A stretch of DNA of 22,910 bases, taken from the IMG/VR virus record IMGVR_UViG_3300014203_000140. One strand, written 5' to 3'. Of this stretch, positions 1 through 17,290 are shown in pieces; position 1 is the first letter of the stretch; each line of letters begins with the position of its first letter. The DNA comes from a virus. The position numbers were made by a program, and so were the translations under genes. The notes below the pieces were generated by a model. The model was not told the origin of the DNA and did no database searches. It saw only the letters and a program-made list of their open reading frames with translations.

Positions 1-77
1 CTGATTTTAACGCAGCTAAAAATATTGCTTTTAGGGCAGTTGTCAACCTGCCTAATGTGCTCTGCTTAGGTAACTAA
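1..77 (+). CDS. tnpB: C-terminal fragment of an IS200/IS605-family TnpB (RNA-guided nuclease); 5' part lies outside the window
   Basis: The frame starting at nt 3 reads DFNAAKNIAFRAVVNLPNVLCLGN* (TAA 75-77). D-x-N-A-A-x-N-I is the RuvC-III motif that ends TnpB proteins. Not in the supplied ORF track. Confidence 0.85.
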   Translation, partial: DFNAAKNIAFRAVVNLPNVLCLGN

Positions 78-122
78 GACGTAGAAGCGCAAGCTCCACA
101 GCTTTAGCGTGGAGAAGTTGAC
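1..122 (+). mobile_element. Right end of an IS200/IS605 (IS1341-like) insertion sequence
   Basis: The tnpB tail is followed by a subterminal hairpin, CTCCAC(94-99)-A-GC-TTTA-GC-GTGGAG(109-114), then AAGTTGAC ending at 122. This matches the typical right-end layout of hairpin plus GTT(C/G)AC. The exact end could be off by a base or two. Confidence 0.8.
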
Positions 123-645
123 TTGTCAGTACTGTGGAAAATCAAGTCCAGAAGTAGTTCTTGAGGTAGATCACGTAACTCCTGTTTCAAAAGGAGGAAC
201 TAACGAATTTGAAAATTTAATAACCTCCTGTAGAGAATGCAACCGTGGCAAATCAGATCATGAAGTTATCCCCACCGAGTTAGATGTGGATTGGAATAAT
301 GTTTTCAGTATATGGGACAAACAGAAGGAAGTAGACGAAGTTATTGAAGATTGTAAAAACAAACTCAAAGAAGCGCTTGTCAAATTAAAAGAATTGAAAA
401 CCGGAGAAATTGACAACACCCTTAGGTATATAGATACCATTTTCAAAAACCCCTTAGAGGATTTAAATGTCCAGAATCAATTAGCTCAAGGTAAATCATT
501 GGAGCAAGTAATACAATATTATTGGGAATTGACGGGAGAATTAAAATATCAAAAATTATTGGAAGAAAATAAATACGAATTTGAAATTAAGATAAAATTA
601 GACGAGGGAGATCAAGGAGAAGCCAACTGTTTTTCAAAACGATGA
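123..645 (+). pseudogene. HNH endonuclease (CxxC...DH...GG...N...CxxCN) with a helical C-terminal extension, 5'-truncated by the IS insertion
   Basis: TCQYCGKSSPEVVLEVDHVTPVSKGGTNEFENLITSCRECNRGKSD is a canonical HNH/Zn motif. The residues normally upstream of the first CxxC are replaced by IS DNA, and the tracked GTG start (109) lies inside the IS hairpin. Confidence 0.75.
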
Positions 646-3331: not shown

Positions 3332-3363
3332 TTTATATTGTTAACACTGTTAACTTTAAAAAA
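3332..3363 (+). promoter_or_regulatory. TATA box followed by a GTTAAC-N3-GTTAAC palindrome (copy 1), upstream of the portal operon
   Basis: TTTATATT-GTTAAC(3340-3345)-ACT-GTTAAC(3349-3354)-TTTAAAAAA. A near-identical copy lies at 9214-9245. Confidence 0.7.
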
Positions 3364-3376
3364 CGGCGGTGATCTT

Positions 3377-3704: not shown

Positions 3705-4952
3705 ATGCCGGCAATTACAGCAGCGGTCCCTACATCTTCACAGCCATTTAAGCTGTTTGCAGCCGCAGAACCCCTCTCAAGGAAAAACAAATCGGCCATC
3801 AAAGGACCGTACATCAATTTTGATGAAAAGAACAGGTTCACGCTGTATCAACAGCTGAGCACATGCAATCCTTACGTTTCTACATCCTTGAACAAATTGG
3901 GGCTGTCCCTGGTCAAAGGTATGGCTTTTGACGGCACAAGCAAGCGGAACTCCAAAGAGTTCGAGGACTTCTCAAAGAAAACTAACTTCCTTAATCAAGT
4001 TCAGAGTCTAGCAAGAATCCTTTGTCGTGATGGAACTTATACAGCTCTCCCTGTGAGCGGAACCAATGGCGGAAACTTCAGGCTGGCTCCTCTGCTCATG
4101 CCTGCTCTGACCATCCTCCCCGAAGGAGTTGAACCCGGGGCGAAAGTTGACGAGGTGATGAGTCCAGGACAGAACATCGAAGGGATGCGGTTCTGCCTAA
4201 ACGAAGGTGACAAACTTCAGGAAGTATATGATTATTCACAGGTCGTCTACGGAGTCTACAACGAATGGGACTCTGTTCAGGAAGACCTGAAAAAACGCAA
4301 GACCTATGGGCTGTACGGGTCCTCCCTTCTTGTTCCAATCATTCCTTCAATTCAGAACCTTCTCGATCTTGACCAGGGCTATGTGAGCTACGTCAAGAAG
4401 TACGGACGGGGAAGGTATGCAATCAACCTGAGAGCTCTCGAAGAAGCAGTCAAGCAAGGGATCATATCACCTGCTCAAGCTTCAGAAGCCGTAGCGGCAT
4501 TTGCTGAAGAGCACAAGAAGCTGAGTGAAAACGAGGACATCATAGGAGCTGGACTCGAAGTCCTAACTCCGGACGCAAAGGGCAGTCTTGATACGTCCAC
4601 GTTTAAGGCTTCCCTCGAAACAGAAATAATGCTCGGACTGTTTCAGAGCCCTCTGACAATGGGAATGTCCTCTAAGAGTACTTACGCATCTGCCTACCTG
4701 GTAGAAGAGGATCGGATGCTTGTCCTCGAAGGCCTTCAGAAAATCACGGAGTCGATCACGAACCAGGCCATCAATGCCAGGCTCAGAGCGATTGGAAAAC
4801 CCGAAGATTCTGTCTGGGTTAAATTTGACGAGCTGAGCAAGCCTGTACTAGATTTCGACACACTTCTTGAGATGTGTAATACTGGCAAGATCACAGATGA
4901 CGAACTGAGACAAAGGGCAGGATTTCCTGCAAAGGCGGTGGATACTGAATGA
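3705..4952 (+). CDS. Portal protein
   Basis: 415 aa, located after terL and before MuF and the capsid genes. Portal-like segments include YGSSLLVPIIPSIQNLL, VWVKFDEL and the terminal GKITDDELRQRAGF. RBS GTGAT-CAT-ATG. Confidence 0.85.
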   Translation: MPAITAAVPTSSQPFKLFAAAEPLSRKNKSAIKGPYINFDEKNRFTLYQQLSTCNPYVSTSLNKLGLSLVKGMAFDGTSKRNSKEFEDFSKKTNFLNQVQSLARILCRDGTYTALPVSGTNGGNFRLAPLLMPALTILPEGVEPGAKVDEVMSPGQNIEGMRFCLNEGDKLQEVYDYSQVVYGVYNEWDSVQEDLKKRKTYGLYGSSLLVPIIPSIQNLLDLDQGYVSYVKKYGRGRYAINLRALEEAVKQGIISPAQASEAVAAFAEEHKKLSENEDIIGAGLEVLTPDAKGSLDTSTFKASLETEIMLGLFQSPLTMGMSSKSTYASAYLVEEDRMLVLEGLQKITESITNQAINARLRAIGKPEDSVWVKFDELSKPVLDFDTLLEMCNTGKITDDELRQRAGFPAKAVDTE

Positions 4953-5242
4953 TAACGGTAATTCTAAACGGAGCTTATACTCTTGATGCTTCAGCAAAAA
5001 CAATATTATTCACAGACACATCACTCAAAAAAGAGAACTTCCTCAAAATAATAGATGTAGATCATAATTGCCTTATCTATGACAGCAACAGGCCGTTGCC
5101 AGGGCAGAACATTTCACTTGATCCAGTGACTCCAGGACTGTTTCATTATGATTACAACGGGGTTGCAGCGGGGTCTACCCTGCAGATATTTGTTGATCTC
5201 CCTTACATCTCAGTCACAGGTATTGACGGAGGCTCGCCCTAA
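4949..5242 (+). CDS. Hypothetical beta-rich virion protein ending in IDGGSP
   Basis: ATGA overlap with the portal stop. Its TAA directly abuts the in-frame ATG of the next gene. Confidence 0.7.
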   Translation: MITVILNGAYTLDASAKTILFTDTSLKKENFLKIIDVDHNCLIYDSNRPLPGQNISLDPVTPGLFHYDYNGVAAGSTLQIFVDLPYISVTGIDGGSP

Positions 5243-6601
5243 ATGCCTCGTAGTGTCAAAATCCAGACTAGGAGAGGATCTGCGGCGTCTTGGTCATCAG
5301 CAAATCCCGTTCTCGAAGCTGGAGAGCCTGGGTATGAGACAGACACTGGAGTCCTGAAAATAGGAAACGGGGTGGCGGCATATAACTCTCTATACCCCAT
5401 TGCCAGTTATATGGAGGGGATGCCTACTGGCATCGAATGGGATACAGCTTCGAGTTCTCCCACCCTTACACGGATCGATATCAACGGAAACGTAATAACC
5501 CCTACTGTATCTTTTTTTGACAACCACGCGATTTGGGGGCGGATAAGGAGATGCGTTCGCAACAAGGCCACCGGAGCCATATCGTATGGCACTAATCCTC
5601 GAGGAGATGGACTCACACTCGATGGTTCTGTTGGAGATGTCCTGGTCGAAATTCCCAACGCGAAATATAAATACGAAGTTTCTGGCACAAAACGGCGTTA
5701 TTGGGTCGCTCCGTTAAACTCAAATTATCCTGGGTTTTCAATCCACCCAGCTGCCATGCAGCGAGGCGGGACAGCACGCTCAAAATTGTATTTGGGAGCT
5801 TACGAATCCTATGGATACCTCGACGGTTCTACCTTCAAGTTAGGGTCCGCAACAAACAAAACCCCGGTTATCGGAGCAGTGGCATACACCAACTTACCGA
5901 ATACAGGCCGGCTGACTCTCGATGATGCAGAGTTGTATGCAAAAAACGCAGGGTATTCAGGGATTGGAAATGTCTGGACTTACTCTTACATGCAGCTGCT
6001 CATGTACATAGAGTACGGTACGCTAGATATTCAGACTGCACTCGGGAAAGGAATAGTGGATCTCGCGTCTGGCACCAATTTTGCAGGAAAACTGACCGGA
6101 GCAGATTCTATCGATTCTCGTCTGGACACGAACGGAACGGGAACTGGATCAGGCACAGCTGGGCAAACGCCCGTCTGTTGGAGGGGAATTGAAAATCCAT
6201 ATGGGAACTGCTGGGAGTTCATAGCTGGATTGAATATGTTCCTGAGCGATGGCACATATAGAGTCCTGAAACGAGATGGGACTGGAACTCCGGCTGCTGC
6301 TCTTGCAGCAGGATCATACGAGACCGGAGTCGGGACAGTGCCGATCTCGGCTGATGGATACATCAATGGTATACAATCTGAAGAGCTCGGAGCATTGTCA
6401 TTTATTCCGTCTGTTGATGCTGGATCAAGCTCGACGTATCTATGCGACCAGTTTTATTACCCTCGCTACAGCCCGTCTATCGTGCTGTTCGGCGGCGTTT
6501 GGTCTCACGGCCTGAGTACGGGCGTCGGCTGCCGGCATGCGTATTACGCTCCTTCGTCTTCCATTCGGACTATCGGCGCCCGCCTTGAGTTCTTGCTGTG
6601 A
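5243..6601 (+). CDS. Mtd-like fibre/receptor-binding protein with a C-terminal C-type-lectin (FGE-like) fold; putative DGR target
   Basis: The N-terminus IQTRRGSAASWSSANPVLEAGEPGYETDTGVLKIGNG is the Mtd_N/hyaluronidase-N anchor motif. The C-terminus has WRGIENPYGNCWEF...VLFGGxWxxG...G...IGARL, typical of DGR-targeted CLec domains. Confidence 0.85.
   Translation: MPRSVKIQTRRGSAASWSSANPVLEAGEPGYETDTGVLKIGNGVAAYNSLYPIASYMEGMPTGIEWDTASSSPTLTRIDINGNVITPTVSFFDNHAIWGRIRRCVRNKATGAISYGTNPRGDGLTLDGSVGDVLVEIPNAKYKYEVSGTKRRYWVAPLNSNYPGFSIHPAAMQRGGTARSKLYLGAYESYGYLDGSTFKLGSATNKTPVIGAVAYTNLPNTGRLTLDDAELYAKNAGYSGIGNVWTYSYMQLLMYIEYGTLDIQTALGKGIVDLASGTNFAGKLTGADSIDSRLDTNGTGTGSGTAGQTPVCWRGIENPYGNCWEFIAGLNMFLSDGTYRVLKRDGTGTPAAALAAGSYETGVGTVPISADGYINGIQSEELGALSFIPSVDAGSSSTYLCDQFYYPRYSPSIVLFGGVWSHGLSTGVGCRHAYYAPSSSIRTIGARLEFLL
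6455..6592 (+). other. Putative DGR variable repeat (VR); 5' boundary approximate
   Basis: Nt 6481-6580 contain 9 A and 64 G+C per 100 nt. The scaffold codons are nearly A-free, and ten NNY codons sit where DGR templates carry AAY. Confidence 0.75.
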
Positions 6602-6610
6602 GGTGATAGT

Positions 6611-6664
6611 ATGAATAAATTTAGTGAGATTGAAAAAGATGATATCCATCTACTAGGAGCCTAA
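6611..6664 (+). pseudogene. 17-codon ORF MNKFSEIEKDDIHLLGA with a perfect RBS; probable truncated gene remnant
   Basis: GGTGAT(6602-6607)-AGT-ATG(6611), stop TAA 6662-6664. Its end overlaps the GGAG RBS of the next gene. Confidence 0.5.
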
Positions 6665-6666
6665 AA

Positions 6667-6945
6667 ATGCCAGAATCCACAATATACCCTCAAGAAATTG
6701 AAATCGACACAATCAAAAACGGAGTAGCTCGTCTACTCGCACATTGGGACATCGAGGCAGTACTACACGACGAATCGACCGTCTATACATACGAAGAATC
6801 GGTCATTAGATGGACCCTCCCTGATACCTTTGAAAGCGAGGGGCAAACAATCATAATAACCACCAGAGACGACGTCAAAGCCTACGTACAGGCCAACTCT
6901 GCTGAAATAATGTCTTTCGCAAAAGCAACAAAATTAACGATGTGA
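6667..6945 (+). CDS. Hypothetical protein, possibly a fibre-associated chaperone
   Basis: 92 aa, GGAG RBS, acidic, located directly after the fibre gene. Function is inferred from position only. Confidence 0.7.
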   Translation: MPESTIYPQEIEIDTIKNGVARLLAHWDIEAVLHDESTVYTYEESVIRWTLPDTFESEGQTIIITTRDDVKAYVQANSAEIMSFAKATKLTM

Positions 6946-6949
6946 TTAT

Positions 6950-7198
6950 ATGAAACTCTTGAAACCAGATGCAACCACAGATGGAAAGATCATCTTTAAC
7001 TTTGAATCAAAAGGCGAGGTGATAACAATAATCAAAGAAGTTGCTGACCTCAAAAAGGCAACTCTGAAATCTGCAAAAGATGCGGCAGTAACAGAGGCAA
7101 AAGCGAAAGCAAAAGAAAAAGAGGATAAGAAGGCTAAAAGAGAAACTGCTCTCGCTGCACTCGAGGCAGCTGGAATCGTAGCGGAAGAAGTGGCATAA
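6950..7198 (+). CDS. Ala/Lys/Glu-rich helical hypothetical protein
   Basis: RBS GTGAT-TAT-ATG; 82 aa, colinear with its neighbours. Confidence 0.7.
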   Translation: MKLLKPDATTDGKIIFNFESKGEVITIIKEVADLKKATLKSAKDAAVTEAKAKAKEKEDKKAKRETALAALEAAGIVAEEVA

Positions 7199-7234: not shown

Positions 7235-8683
7235 ATGCTCCTTGATTCTACCGAAATCAACACAATAGAAAGTAATTTCATTTCTCTTTTTGAACGGACA
7301 TTCAAAAAAGGAATCAAGGGGCAACCCGGATCAAAGCTTCAAAAGTCAGTGAAATCAGCCTTCTCATCAAAAACTTTTGAAAAGCAGGTTGACTCCCTGA
7401 TTGATGACCTCTATCTCTACACAATAGACGCCACAGACAAGCTGATCAAGAAATCCTTGAAAGCCGGCTTACAGAGGACCCCCACAAAGCGACATCTCGG
7501 AGCAGCCGAAGAGGATACATCCGGAGAGCCACTGATCTTGACCAGGGAGGCCGTCCATGAAGCATCTGGATTATCTGATGAAGTTATGGAGTCAATCATC
7601 CGGGTCCTCAAGGACGAGGCTATCTATCAGGAACATCCTACAGTCCTGGCTCGCAGGATCCTAGACCTGTGGGGGGGAGAAAGGTATAGAGCCGTCAGGT
7701 GGGCTCGGACCTTCAGCGCAGACGTCGCTACGAATACTTCTCTCCACATATTCAAGCAGCAGGGAATTGAGGAGTGTCAGTTCTATGCTCGAATAGATGG
7801 CAAGACTTCTCCTCAGTGCCGGCTCATGCATGGGACTGTATACCAGGTTGGTTCTCCGGAAGTCAGGCAGTACTCTTGTCCTTTGCACCATCACTGCAGG
7901 AGCACTTGGATCCCGGTAACTCCTTACTCAGATATCGATGATTCCATGCGTTATGAGAACCGTGACTTTACAAAGCAGGTTGATCAGAACTTCAAGCCTC
8001 TTGACGAAGGCATAGACGAGAAGGCCACAAAGAAGATTTTCGAGGAAATCGATACTTTCAATGAAAAGTGGGCAGTTCCTTCATGGATTCTGGATGAAGA
8101 TGTGGAGAAGAGGATAGTTAAGCTGGGAGTTGAAGTCAAAGCCAAAGTGCCTAAGGCCAAAGCTCCAAAGAAAGAAAAGAACCCGGAGACAATAATAAGA
8201 GGCATTGAGGCGAAGATAAAGACAAGGAAAACTGAAAAGGCTTACGTCTTCGATTCAAAAGGGAACATTATCCTGGAGAAGGGCGGTACGAAGAACCAGG
8301 TATCGTTCACAAACGAAGAAGTGAAGCTTTTCAAAGGATCGATTCTAACTCACAACCACCCGGGAGCAAGCTCACTATCTCCTCAAGATATTCAGACGGC
8401 ATGCATGAACTCCATGAAGGAAATCAGGGCGACAGGAACATTCAGAACATATTCTATGAAAACGAAAGATGGGAGCAACTTAACTCCTGGTCTCTGGAAG
8501 GGCGAGATAAAAGCCATATACGAGATCCATAACTCAGGAGTTAGACGCGATCTCATGAGCAGGATCGACAAAGGGGAAATGAGTCTCCAAGACGCAGAAC
8601 TTCTCCATTTCCACGAGGTATGGACAAGGACAGCAAATGATATATCAAAGTTGGATTATTCATTTATTGAGGAAAAGAAATGA
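7235..8683 (+). CDS. MuF/SPP1 gp7-like head morphogenesis protein with a C-terminal JAB/MPN-like domain
   Basis: MuF motifs DGKTSPQCRLMHG and CPLHHHCRS (7877-7903), then a K/A/P linker, then an extension with E...THNHPGASSLSPQD (8348-8389). Confidence 0.85.
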   Translation: MLLDSTEINTIESNFISLFERTFKKGIKGQPGSKLQKSVKSAFSSKTFEKQVDSLIDDLYLYTIDATDKLIKKSLKAGLQRTPTKRHLGAAEEDTSGEPLILTREAVHEASGLSDEVMESIIRVLKDEAIYQEHPTVLARRILDLWGGERYRAVRWARTFSADVATNTSLHIFKQQGIEECQFYARIDGKTSPQCRLMHGTVYQVGSPEVRQYSCPLHHHCRSTWIPVTPYSDIDDSMRYENRDFTKQVDQNFKPLDEGIDEKATKKIFEEIDTFNEKWAVPSWILDEDVEKRIVKLGVEVKAKVPKAKAPKKEKNPETIIRGIEAKIKTRKTEKAYVFDSKGNIILEKGGTKNQVSFTNEEVKLFKGSILTHNHPGASSLSPQDIQTACMNSMKEIRATGTFRTYSMKTKDGSNLTPGLWKGEIKAIYEIHNSGVRRDLMSRIDKGEMSLQDAELLHFHEVWTRTANDISKLDYSFIEEKK

Positions 8684-8898
8684 TGGGCATAGACGATCGG
8701 GAATTAGACGAAGTAATCTATAGTCCTACCTGTCTTCCTTGCAAACATTTCAATAGAGAAGCTTATTCTGAAACTGGGAAAAAGACATGTGAAGCTTTTC
8801 CTGATGGCATCCCGGGTGAGATTTGGAAAGGTGACAATGTTCATAAGGCGCCTTATCCTGGAGATCATGGGATCCAGTTTGAACCAAGGGGGAAGTGA
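8680..8898 (+). CDS. Small Cys/His protein, candidate immunity or partner of the MuF C-terminal domain
   Basis: ATGA-coupled to MuF. Motif CxxCKH...CEAFPDGIPxxIxxGxxxHxxPYPGDHGIQFE, which I recall from small genes downstream of extended MuF genes (unverified). Confidence 0.75.
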   Translation: MMGIDDRELDEVIYSPTCLPCKHFNREAYSETGKKTCEAFPDGIPGEIWKGDNVHKAPYPGDHGIQFEPRGK

Positions 8899-9213: not shown

Positions 9214-9245
9214 TTTATAATTGTTAACAGCGTTAACTTTATAAA
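9214..9245 (+). promoter_or_regulatory. TATA box followed by a GTTAAC-N3-GTTAAC palindrome (copy 2); probable leaderless promoter of the capsid operon
   Basis: TTTATAATT-GTTAAC(9223-9228)-AGC-GTTAAC(9232-9237)-TTTATAAA-ATG(9246). The TATA ends about 25 nt before the ATG and there is no RBS. Confidence 0.7.
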
Positions 9246-10259
9246 ATGACTGTTTTTCTGGAAGGTTTAGCCTTCCCTCTGGGTGAAAAAAACATCAATG
9301 GATGGGGAATCCCAGAATCCGAAGCAGCGAGCGCCATCTCCTCATTAAAAGCATCTGTTCTAAAAATATGTCCAGGCGAAGCTCACGCATGCGATTTTTC
9401 CGAAGATCCTTACGGACGAATAGGAAGGATCGTTGATGCTTGGCAACAGGGTAATGGTATCTACGTGAAGGCTTCAGTCACTGACTCGGTTGCCTCGAGG
9501 AAGATCAAAGAAGGAACTTGGGATGAACATACATGGAGCGTATATGCGGATTCTTTGATAGACCCAAAGCTAAACAGTGGATGGGCTAAAGGCTTCACAG
9601 CAAAGGCTCTCACCCTCGTAAAAAAGCCCGCCTGGACTCAGGCACAATACACAGTTTCGGCAGCTGCTGATAATAAAGTTAAGCTGCACACATTTTCACA
9701 ATTTCATATAATTGCATCTCAAGAAGGTGATCCTATCACACCAGATCTCGAAAAACGAATTTGGGAGCTTGAAACACAGCTTGCAGAAAAGGACAAGCTC
9801 ATTGCAGAGCTTCAGCCGAAAGCTGATACCGTAGGCACACTGGAAACACAGGTCGCTGAATTGACAGCCTCAAAAACATCTCTTGAAAAGGAAATCGGAG
9901 AAAAGACTACACTCATAGCCTCTCTTGAAAAAGGGCAGGCCGGAAGCGTACCGATGGACAATGTACAGGCACTTATAGCCTCTGCAATCGCAGACCACGA
10001 CAAGGAGAAAGAAGCCAAGTCCATACTTGCAGCTGCCAGGGACAAGTTCGTAGCAGCCAGGAAAGAGCTCGGAATCGAGACCAAGCCGGAAGAATTCACA
10101 AGCTTGTCAGCTTCGGACTTCGAGGCAATGACTGGAACTCTGTCCGTGAAGCTCTCAGCGAGTCAGATGCCAAGGTATCCTGCGAACGGATCGAGTTCCG
10201 CATCCAAGCTTCAGGTGTATGATCCGAAGAGCAACTCTTACAATGAGCAGGTGATCTGA
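9246..10259 (+). CDS. Prohead protease/scaffold fusion
   Basis: The N-terminal ~150 aa resemble a head maturation protease (H in AHAC, IGRIVDAW, WSVY). The C-terminal half is a coiled-coil scaffold. Located two genes before the MCP. Confidence 0.7.
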   Translation: MTVFLEGLAFPLGEKNINGWGIPESEAASAISSLKASVLKICPGEAHACDFSEDPYGRIGRIVDAWQQGNGIYVKASVTDSVASRKIKEGTWDEHTWSVYADSLIDPKLNSGWAKGFTAKALTLVKKPAWTQAQYTVSAAADNKVKLHTFSQFHIIASQEGDPITPDLEKRIWELETQLAEKDKLIAELQPKADTVGTLETQVAELTASKTSLEKEIGEKTTLIASLEKGQAGSVPMDNVQALIASAIADHDKEKEAKSILAAARDKFVAARKELGIETKPEEFTSLSASDFEAMTGTLSVKLSASQMPRYPANGSSSASKLQVYDPKSNSYNEQVI

Positions 10260-15343: not shown

Positions 15344-17290
15344 ATGGCAGGGGTTGGAGAAGTGTGGGCAGATGCCGGGCTTCACGTCGATGGGTCTTCA
15401 TTTGCTCAGTATGGGGCAATGCTGAAGCAAGCCGAAGGCCAGGTTAGCAGTTTTTCTGATGGTACTAAAGCAGCTATGGCATCAGCTTTCATGATCCCGG
15501 CTGCAGCGGTGACTGGAGCAGCCGCTTACGGAGCTGCAATAGGGGCCTCTTATGAAACGGCGGGGATAAAACTTGAAACACTTTATGGGACTCAGCAAAA
15601 AGCAAACGAAGAATTCCAGTGGCTCTCCGACTTTGCTGCAAGTACTCCTTTTGAATTCCCTGAACTCCTCCAAGTAGACGGCCTCTTAAAAAATGCCGGA
15701 TTGTCTGCACAGGAATACATCAAAGGTGTAGGGGATGCATCCGCAGCACAGGGGAAAACAATAGAGCAGACAACAGAAGCAATAGTCGATGCAATGACAG
15801 GCGAGTACGAGCGTCTAAAGGAATATGGAATAACTTCTGTAGAAATCACAAGTAAAAACTATGAAAAACTCGGTGTAGCCGCCGAAGACGCAGGAAAACG
15901 CGCTCTGCTTGCAATAGATAAAAACGGGAAAGAGCAGGTAATGGTTGTTGACCAGAACAACAAACAGATGATTGCCTCCACTATCCTGGCATTTTGGAAT
16001 GACAAATACGCCGGAGCAATGGAAAAACAGAGCCAAACCATTACTGGGATGTATTCGACTATCAAGGACAATATCAAGAACGGCCTGGCTGAACTTGCAG
16101 GCTTTGATATGTCCTCGATGACAATAGAAACTTTTAGCATACTTGGGGCGCTTAAAGAGCTCGCCGGCGTTGCTATCGTTGTCTCGGATAAATTTGCAAA
16201 TATGTCTGAGCCAATGCAGACATTTGTTCTCGTGGCCACCATTGGAGGTGCTGCTGCCCTCGCTCTCGCGGGCGGGCTGATTGCTGCTCAGGTGGCTGGG
16301 ATCACAGCAACGGGTGTAATGGCTGCTTTAGGCTTTGCCGTAAATACTGTCATTTGGCCGGCTACTCTCATCGTTGGTGCTCTCGCTCTCGTGGCCGCTG
16401 GGCTGGTTTATCTTGATGAAAAAACCGGCATTGTAACATATTCATGGACACTGTTTAAAGACCTTTTTACTATTACAACTAACGGAATTATAACTGCTGC
16501 CGGTATTCTCTGGGACTTTATTACCCTCGCTATGGATGGAATCAAAACCGCCATCTCGGACATGTTCCCCCCCGGTTTTCTTGAGGGTGTAGGAAATGCA
16601 GTGAATGGAATTATTTCTCAGTTTTCTAATATGGGAGTCAACATCCACACGAAGGCCGAGGGAATCCGTGCGGATAATGGTAATATAGGGACCTCAGCAC
16701 AGACAGCTGGAGGTCAAGTCACCGGAGCAACCGGACAAATGATGGCAGGATTCACTGGTGCAGGTGCTTCTGCGTTGGGCATGGGTGCGAACACTCTAAC
16801 GGCAACTGGTCAGATGGTAAGTGGTTTCGGTGCAGCTGGGGGAGCTGCTACTACGATGGGGGGTAACGTAGCCGGAACTGTACCCGCAGTCAACTCCCTC
16901 ACCGGAGCAGCAGGCTCGGGTACAGCTGCAAATCAGTCCTATGCTGCGTCTTTTATCAACGTTTCAACCCAGGCAAGTGCAGCGGCTTCAGCTGCAATCT
17001 CTGCTGCTAGCAGGATAGGCTCTGCTATCAAGACGTCTATGGCACAGGTCGGCGAGCTTGAAGCTCTTGCTGGAAAGTGGAACACGAGAGCAAAATTAGG
17101 TATTACATCTTCGGGTGGAGCTGGAACTGGGGAAGGAAATGTCAAAGTCGTTGCAAATCCAAATAATTATACAGCGAGCGAAACGGCTACACGGTCCGCA
17201 AATCTCACGGTTTATAATAATAATAAACAGACGATAAATAACAACGGGGATAAACTCAGCGCATCTAAAGCAAAAGCGGCAGGAGTCTAA
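15344..17290 (+). CDS. Tape measure protein
   Basis: 648 aa. TMP motif FAASTPFEFPEL, a hydrophobic central segment and a G/A-rich C-terminus. GGGGA RBS. Confidence 0.9.
   Translation: MAGVGEVWADAGLHVDGSSFAQYGAMLKQAEGQVSSFSDGTKAAMASAFMIPAAAVTGAAAYGAAIGASYETAGIKLETLYGTQQKANEEFQWLSDFAASTPFEFPELLQVDGLLKNAGLSAQEYIKGVGDASAAQGKTIEQTTEAIVDAMTGEYERLKEYGITSVEITSKNYEKLGVAAEDAGKRALLAIDKNGKEQVMVVDQNNKQMIASTILAFWNDKYAGAMEKQSQTITGMYSTIKDNIKNGLAELAGFDMSSMTIETFSILGALKELAGVAIVVSDKFANMSEPMQTFVLVATIGGAAALALAGGLIAAQVAGITATGVMAALGFAVNTVIWPATLIVGALALVAAGLVYLDEKTGIVTYSWTLFKDLFTITTNGIITAAGILWDFITLAMDGIKTAISDMFPPGFLEGVGNAVNGIISQFSNMGVNIHTKAEGIRADNGNIGTSAQTAGGQVTGATGQMMAGFTGAGASALGMGANTLTATGQMVSGFGAAGGAATTMGGNVAGTVPAVNSLTGAAGSGTAANQSYAASFINVSTQASAAASAAISAASRIGSAIKTSMAQVGELEALAGKWNTRAKLGITSSGGAGTGEGNVKVVANPNNYTASETATRSANLTVYNNNKQTINNNGDKLSASKAKAAGV
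16727..16876 (+). repeat. Two 75-nt (25-aa) tandem repeats in the tape measure gene
   Basis: ATGQMMAGFTGAGASALGMGANTLT and ATGQMVSGFGAAGGAATTMGGNVAG. Confidence 0.6.

Follow-up and report, generated by a model that had tools for sequence, protein, structure and literature searches.

Among prokaryotes and their viruses, diversity-generating retroelements (DGRs) are, to our knowledge, the only natural systems of targeted protein hypermutation, and we know of few that have been described in archaeal viruses. Here we analysed the virus record IMGVR_UViG_3300014203_000140, a stretch of 22,910 nucleotides (nt) on one strand (hereafter the window), and in it the open reading frame (ORF) 5243-6601, which encodes a protein (P0001) with a DGR-type variable region (VR) close to its C-terminus. 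The locus belongs to a DGR-target family and is not a complete DGR. We put at roughly 0.78 the probability that it is an orphan, frozen VR left by deletion of the DGR cassette.

Four described systems come closest. The Mtd protein of Bordetella phage BPP-1 (PDB 1yu0-1yu4) has an N-terminal Mtd_N domain, a C-terminal C-type-lectin (CLec) domain and its VR at the extreme C-terminus, and P0001 is organised in the same way; the two proteins are 13-14% identical in structural alignment, and the host here is most likely archaeal. The BPP-1 DGR also resembles the cassettes that we found in relatives of the window, in the order of target, small accessory gene, template repeat (TR) and reverse transcriptase (RT), in its AAY codons (Y being C or T) and in a G/C-rich VR 3' end. 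Unlike BPP-1, the relatives encode an accessory protein that is not recognisably Avd, and the window itself is without accessory gene, TR and RT. TaqVP of Thermus aquaticus (PDB 5vf4), a DGR variable protein of CLec fold, is the best match to P0001 in both structure and profile, whereas its identity is 15-17%, it is cellular and without Mtd_N, and its DGR is intact. AdtA of ANMV-1, a putative tailed virus of anaerobic methanotrophic (ANME) archaea, is a DGR target with an Mtd-like CLec domain and some nine or ten AAY codons (Paul et al. 2015, PMC4372165). The cassette of ANMV-1 is intact and includes an Avd-like gene, whereas here the cassette is deleted and the small accessory protein of the relatives is a different one. 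Finally, VRs without an RT have been described in Nanoarchaeota, either as 'fossils' or as remotely diversified sites (Paul et al. 2015, PMC4372165). The window locus shares with these a history of adenine-directed mutagenesis, the absence of an RT nearby and the same two readings. It differs from them in that the loss can be reconstructed from breakpoints, a gene stub and a complete genome in which RT and TR are both missing, and in that such loss recurs in several virus lineages. The new elements are the documented scar of a lost cassette and the recurrence of this loss across a family of probable methanogen viruses. The locus provides a reconstructable case of DGR loss with the product kept, with intact and independently deleted relatives for comparison, and the family adds probable Methanosarcina viruses to the hosts of DGRs. 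The features of the locus are collected in Table 1.

Table 1 Features of the DGR-target locus. Positions are those of the window unless preceded by the handle of a related locus.
Feature	Position	Strand	Basis
Mtd-like DGR variable protein gene, 452 amino acids (aa)	5243..6601	+	ORF and translation; Mtd_N, PHROG 5302, fold
Mtd_N domain, aa 7-44	5261..5374	+	Pfam PF18454
VR, 111 nt, aa 413-449	6479..6589	+	mismatch pattern against the TRs of L018 and L019
C/T polymorphism, His422/Tyr422	6506..6506	+	first base of an AAC-derived codon
G/C-only run and CTTGAG, VR 3' end	6574..6589	+	VR/TR homology ends here; resembles an initiation of mutagenic homing (IMH) site by position
Accessory gene stub, 17 codons, premature stop	6611..6664	+	tblastn, alignment, translation
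Deletion junction, ~1.58 kb absent	6659..6663	.	collinear blastn blocks; same junction in second sample
Two small genes, 92 aa and 82 aa	6667..7198	+	synteny with L001 12822-13354, L023, L031, L082 and provirus L084
Accessory protein of relatives, 94-101 aa, between VR and TR	L001:11192-11473; L018:1924-2205; L019:938-1219; L082:4499-4801		

The evidence for a DGR history comes from comparison with 24 related loci, collected from IMG/VR and from scans of Joint Genome Institute (JGI) metagenomes; the proteins of the nearest clade are 72-81% identical to P0001. Intact cassettes were found in L001, L018, L019 and L032 of this clade, as well as in L082/L083, two loci of a more distant group that were located by a scan for the inferred TR. 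The order in these relatives is target, 94-aa accessory gene, TR, spacer and RT. The RT of L001 matches RVT_1 at 5.8e-19 and has the motifs IGNYLSQ and YCDD. All 27 differences between the VR of L001 and its own TR are at adenine sites, and the same holds for the 20 differences between VR and TR in L019. An exact 46-nt pattern of the L018/L019-type TR had no match in IMG/VR.

A first-pass annotation, made by a model from the letters of the window alone, had called a DGR variable repeat in this gene, and the relatives' TRs allow the call to be checked. Between the VR of the window and the L019 TR there are 25 mismatches at adenine sites and two elsewhere; with the L018 TR the figures are 26 and two, a fit equal to that of L018's own VR. 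Template adenines make up 35-36 of the 111 nt and take 25-26 of the 27-28 mismatches (hypergeometric P ~1e-14). The annotation had also proposed that ten codons, all ending in T or C, descend from AAY template codons. The TRs of L018 and L019 have AAT or AAC at exactly those ten places, with the third base kept in 10/10; in the window they now read GTT, TCT, CAC, AGT, CAT, TAT, TAC, TCT, ATT and ACT. The template that it had reconstructed was thus right in these ten codons and missed further adenines outside them, for example those of an AGC that is GGC in the window and of a CAC that is CGC within the G/C-only run.

The composition of the region was as annotated. The codon string lies at 6491-6583, in frame with the ORF, and 52% of the other codons of the gene end in T or C, compared with all ten of those flagged. 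The interval 6481-6580 has 9% A and 64% G+C, while A amounts to 27% in the rest of the gene and to 30% in the window. The G/C-only run at 6574-6584 is present. The limits of the region, given as 6455-6592, do contain the VR, and the start was placed 24 nt too early. At the 3' run the VR of every relative has G where the TR has A, and homology ceases past GAG; by its position this end would act as an IMH.

The non-adenine positions of the VR are 97% identical among the window, L018 and L019, compared with only 77% for the 600 nt upstream. We considered this contrast as possible evidence of homing in trans and rejected it, since the pattern is explained by the conservation of the TR and spacer RNA itself. 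In a separate comparison, the TR and spacer before the RT (L018:2250-2460 and L019:1260-1470) were 97-100% identical, with flanks 60-90% identical, which suggests that the DGR RNA (TR plus spacer) is strongly constrained. The VR of the window has only two non-adenine changes; therefore, the cassette deletion is recent relative to the divergence of these viruses.

The product also fits the family. P0001 matches Mtd_N (PF18454) at E 1.4e-14, with 54.2 bits against a cut-off of 26.3, and PHROG 5302, 'tail protein', at E 2.6e-55; its family is very large, with 12,138 representatives at E <= 1e-3. When 56 homologues are aligned, the final ~35 residues are hypervariable around a kept GG.W...G.R.E scaffold, with entropy peaks at the NNY codons and with GG.W, G.R and E conserved. 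An AlphaFold (AF2) model built on this alignment had a predicted local distance difference test (pLDDT) score of 92.5. Foldseek matched it to TaqVP 5vf4 (3e-10, the top match), Mtd 1yu0-4 (6e-7), formylglycine-generating enzymes (FGE; 2e-4) and TvpA 2y3c (0.03), and a profile search (hmmsearch) also recovered 5vf4, at 3.8e-9. The CLec fold that had been proposed from the codon motif is hence also what the model predicts, in the form of a C-terminal CLec/FGE-like fold. Mtd_N is presumably the virion-attachment module, and P0001 as a whole is probably the receptor-binding protein of the virion. The same genome encodes a second Mtd_N protein of 383 aa in the tail module (L012:16274-17425, about 23566-24717 in window coordinates and past the window end), which has a DUF2341/concanavalin-like C-terminus and no VR; the two Mtd_N proteins may share one virion docking site.

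The loss of the cassette can be read from collinear alignment. By blastn, window 5429-6659 corresponds to L001 10010-11240 and window 6663-7176 to L001 12818-13332, and nothing in the window corresponds to the intervening 1,577 nt of L001, in which the TR, the RT and the remainder of the accessory ORF lie. What is left of the accessory gene is a ribosome-binding site (RBS), an ATG at 6611 and a stop at 6662-6664; the stub aligns with residues 1-16 of the 94-aa protein of L001 at 87.5% identity (tblastn). The two breakpoints are set in purine-rich, RBS-like strings that resemble each other (AGGAG...AAAA), one in the interior of the accessory gene and the other in the RBS of the next gene, and to judge from these strings a deletion by short homology is plausible. 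The 92-aa and 82-aa genes, for which we found no Pfam or PHROG match, come after the RT in the cassette-bearing relatives and directly after the target in the window.

Other members of the family have lost the cassette as well. In L031, 19 accessory codons and ~45 nt of the RT 3' end are left, and in L023/L025 49 accessory codons are left. The stubs of the window, L031 and L023/L025 are different; therefore, they reflect repeated deletion and not one insertion event. The more distant group (~50% identical) is polymorphic in the same way: next to the intact L082/L083, the downstream gene comes immediately after the target in L003, L005, L007, L022 and L024, and RT and TR are absent from the IMG/VR records of these five. 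Among the contigs sampled, cassette-less genomes outnumber cassette-bearing ones in the family. In a separate case, the provirus L084 (G103:C1:1206728-1208077) in a Methanosarcinaceae chromosome has a target 49% identical, followed directly by a homologue of the 92-aa gene. Its VR-equivalent has a normal adenine content with no depletion, and from this sequence L084 appears to be an old, decayed orphan state.

The absence of RT and TR extends to the complete genome. The window is 3528-26437 of the reversed contig ena:ERZ27249489:k141_340135 (41,499 nt), which is fully covered by L010, L012 and L014. In a second sample, the two ends of contig ERZ27247361:k141_2692164 overlap by 141 nt and close it to a circle of ~37.6 kb; its gene order and its 6659/6663 junction are those of the window, and this circular assembly is likewise free of RT and TR. 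Pfam searches of 29 large ORFs in the window gave no RT family, and tblastn with a relative's RT found none there. In the whole 41.5-kb contig the called genes had no RVT family, and tblastn with a relative's DGR RT returned nothing below E 2. No TR was found in window or contig, whether by a search for direct repeats, by an 18-nt scaffold seed allowing 3 mismatches or by scans that were ungapped and adenine-tolerant. The first-pass annotation had reported no TR copy and no RT-like ORF for the window, and the repeat, Pfam and tblastn searches agree with it, while related genomes do carry TRs. Of a complete DGR in cis, the genome of the window has neither RT nor TR, and its accessory gene is reduced to the 17-codon stub.

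We propose the following sequence of events. Mutagenic retrohoming wrote the VR: an RT copied a TR near-identical to those of L018 and L019, the template adenines were randomised in the complementary DNA (cDNA), and this cDNA took the place of the VR. The ~1.58-kb deletion then took out the TR and the RT together with all but the start of the 94-aa accessory gene, leaving the 17-codon stub and bringing the target gene up against the next one. The 37 codons of the VR, which lie immediately ahead of the C-terminal tail, would encode the ligand-binding surface, and as an orphan the VR would hold one fixed binding specificity, changing only by ordinary point mutation. We infer from this that diversification of the VR is presently inactive.

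The annotation had left two options, a remotely serviced target and a frozen variant. The evidence favours the frozen variant, with the cassette deleted and no RT or TR in the complete genome. The alternative is that the VR is diversified in trans, either by cDNA from the DGR of a co-infecting relative or within a recombining mix of siblings with and without the cassette. Several observations support this alternative and weigh against a frozen VR. The VR is near-pristine and fits the L018/L019 TRs as well as their own VRs do, the relatives' TR matches ~97% of its non-adenine sites, and the G/C-rich 3' end is retained, so that a matching TR could still deliver cDNA to this VR; with TR and spacer near-identical between L018 and L019, one TR RNA could fit several viruses. 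The same sample series holds this virus and the cassette-bearing relatives L019 and L032: L016 and L032 are both from Ga0172377. The Logan contigs of this virus in run SRR6485349 (L087, L089) end at 6279 and restart at 6949, being 100% identical elsewhere. This assembly gap (6280-6948) covers the VR, the stub and the 92-aa gene and fits heterogeneity there, which would produce such a gap, without being proof of it.

A further point concerns the polymorphism at 6506. P0001 is found on two contigs, and the contig of the second sample encodes a one-residue variant, P0152 (451/452 identical). Genome-wide, the two fully compared assemblies have three real single-nucleotide polymorphisms (SNPs). Position 6506 is the sole nucleotide difference in 7.4 kb around the target gene, and it lies on an adenine-derived site; the chance that one of three SNPs falls on such a site of the VR is P ~0.003, if selection is left aside. 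Its placement could hint at continuing targeted change and is thus also unfavourable to a frozen VR. We read it as a point mutation, which may have been selected at the binding surface. The other two SNPs are at 16958 and 16960 of the window, 2 nt apart in the tape-measure gene.

Against diversification in trans, all 25 other mutated adenine sites are the same in both samples, which argues against fresh homing because many of these sites would be expected to change again in any further event. The lone change lies near the VR 5' end, whereas it is the 3' end that anchors homing. Three cassette-less lineages sampled twice have 0-1 VR differences (the VRs of the pairs L023/L025 and L004/L005 are identical within the pair), compared with eight in the cassette-bearing pair L082/L083, where all eight are at template adenines and there are none elsewhere in target, accessory gene, TR and RT. 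Nine more differences between L082 and L083 cluster at L082 6379-6409; we did not count this cluster as a second VR, as it sits where the alignment runs out and the two contigs diverge. Among 177 Methanosarcinaceae genomes there was no cognate RT, and DGR-like RTs were present in four, only 35-40% identical. Among 84 loci, a near-cognate TR was found only in L018 and L019, neither of which is from the samples of the window. We therefore regard diversification in trans as unlikely.

A broader form of the same idea is a DGR shared by the community, in which cassette-less free-riders keep a VR competent for homing, and co-infecting relatives supply the DGRs that diversify it. What would make this possible is the near-invariance of the TR-spacer RNA, with 97-100% identity between viruses that are only 60-90% identical in their other genes. 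The cassette-less majority among the sampled contigs of the family fits two readings, namely that a successful receptor-binding variant has been locked in, or that it is free-riding on the DGRs of relatives. We consider a community-shared DGR quite improbable, and prefer a frozen VR.

The deletion might also be an artefact, in which the assembler collapsed the cassette region by way of the VR/TR repeat. Imperfect repeats such as VR and TR can confuse assemblers, and two other samples lack an assembly of this region. However, the junction is identical to the base in two assemblies made independently from different samples, and a VR/TR collapse would fuse VR to TR, whereas the join in the window is between accessory codon 17 and the RBS of the gene that follows. 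Similar, non-identical deletions are moreover present in the unrelated assemblies L031, L023/L025, L003, L005, L007, L022 and L024, and an artefact is in our opinion very hard to believe. That no DGR was ever involved, the region being a fast-evolving lectin tip with a chance bias in composition, has in its favour only the absence of TR and RT from the window and is refuted by the adenine-specific pattern of VR/TR mismatches, with the accessory stub and the fold and family of DGR targets against it as well.

The small accessory protein of the cassette-bearing relatives (Table 1) is a new element too, as a side observation. It is 64-83% conserved, above the target, with an isoelectric point of ~8. 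It had no Pfam or PHROG match and no detectable similarity to Avd. Its AF2 model is of low confidence (pLDDT 59) and has a mixed beta and alpha content, not a helical bundle. In the Atlas it falls in unnamed viral clusters only, one of which has a weak lead to the single-stranded DNA-binding protein (SSB) of phi29. It may be an accessory factor other than Avd.

The position of the module, which consists of a small gene, the target, the cassette if present and the two small genes, also differs between genomes. It was compared between window 4949-7198 and L001:9142-13354. In the window it precedes the MuF gene, while in L001 it follows it (window 8175-8883 corresponds to L001 8161-8856), and by this gene order the module appears to have been relocated within the structural region.

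The window also encodes an HNH protein, a large terminase, a MuF-like protein, a major-head candidate, a tail terminator, a tape measure and a 1604-aa beta-helix protein with Disaggr_assoc. Against GenBank phages, megablast with the complete window gave no match. The virus had been described as of archaeal type, and a Methanosarcina-like TnpB, the Disaggr_assoc domains and a homologous provirus in a Methanosarcinaceae chromosome (L084) agree with this description. It is likely a tailed virus of ~37.6 kb with a Methanosarcina host. The TnpB (OrfB_IS605) element is ~1.2 kb long (window 1-142; L010:2408-3638) and is located either immediately before the HNH gene or within its 5' end. Its nearest relatives, at 79-92% identity, are in Methanosarcina genomes, and the circular contig of the second sample lacks it. 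The first 2.4 kb of the source contig (L010:1-2630, with a PAPS_reduct/DUF3440 gene and others) are not in the circular genome, and a 228-nt repeat is present in the source contig at 2403-2630 and 41272-41499. This suggests that the assembler joined a foreign flank to the source contig by way of the insertion-sequence (IS) element. Finally, a 34-nt element occurs at window 3337-3370 and 9220-9253, ahead of two gene blocks, with 82% identity between its copies; it contains GTTAAC-N3-GTTAAC followed by an A/T-rich box and is, from its sequence and placement, a candidate operator or promoter.

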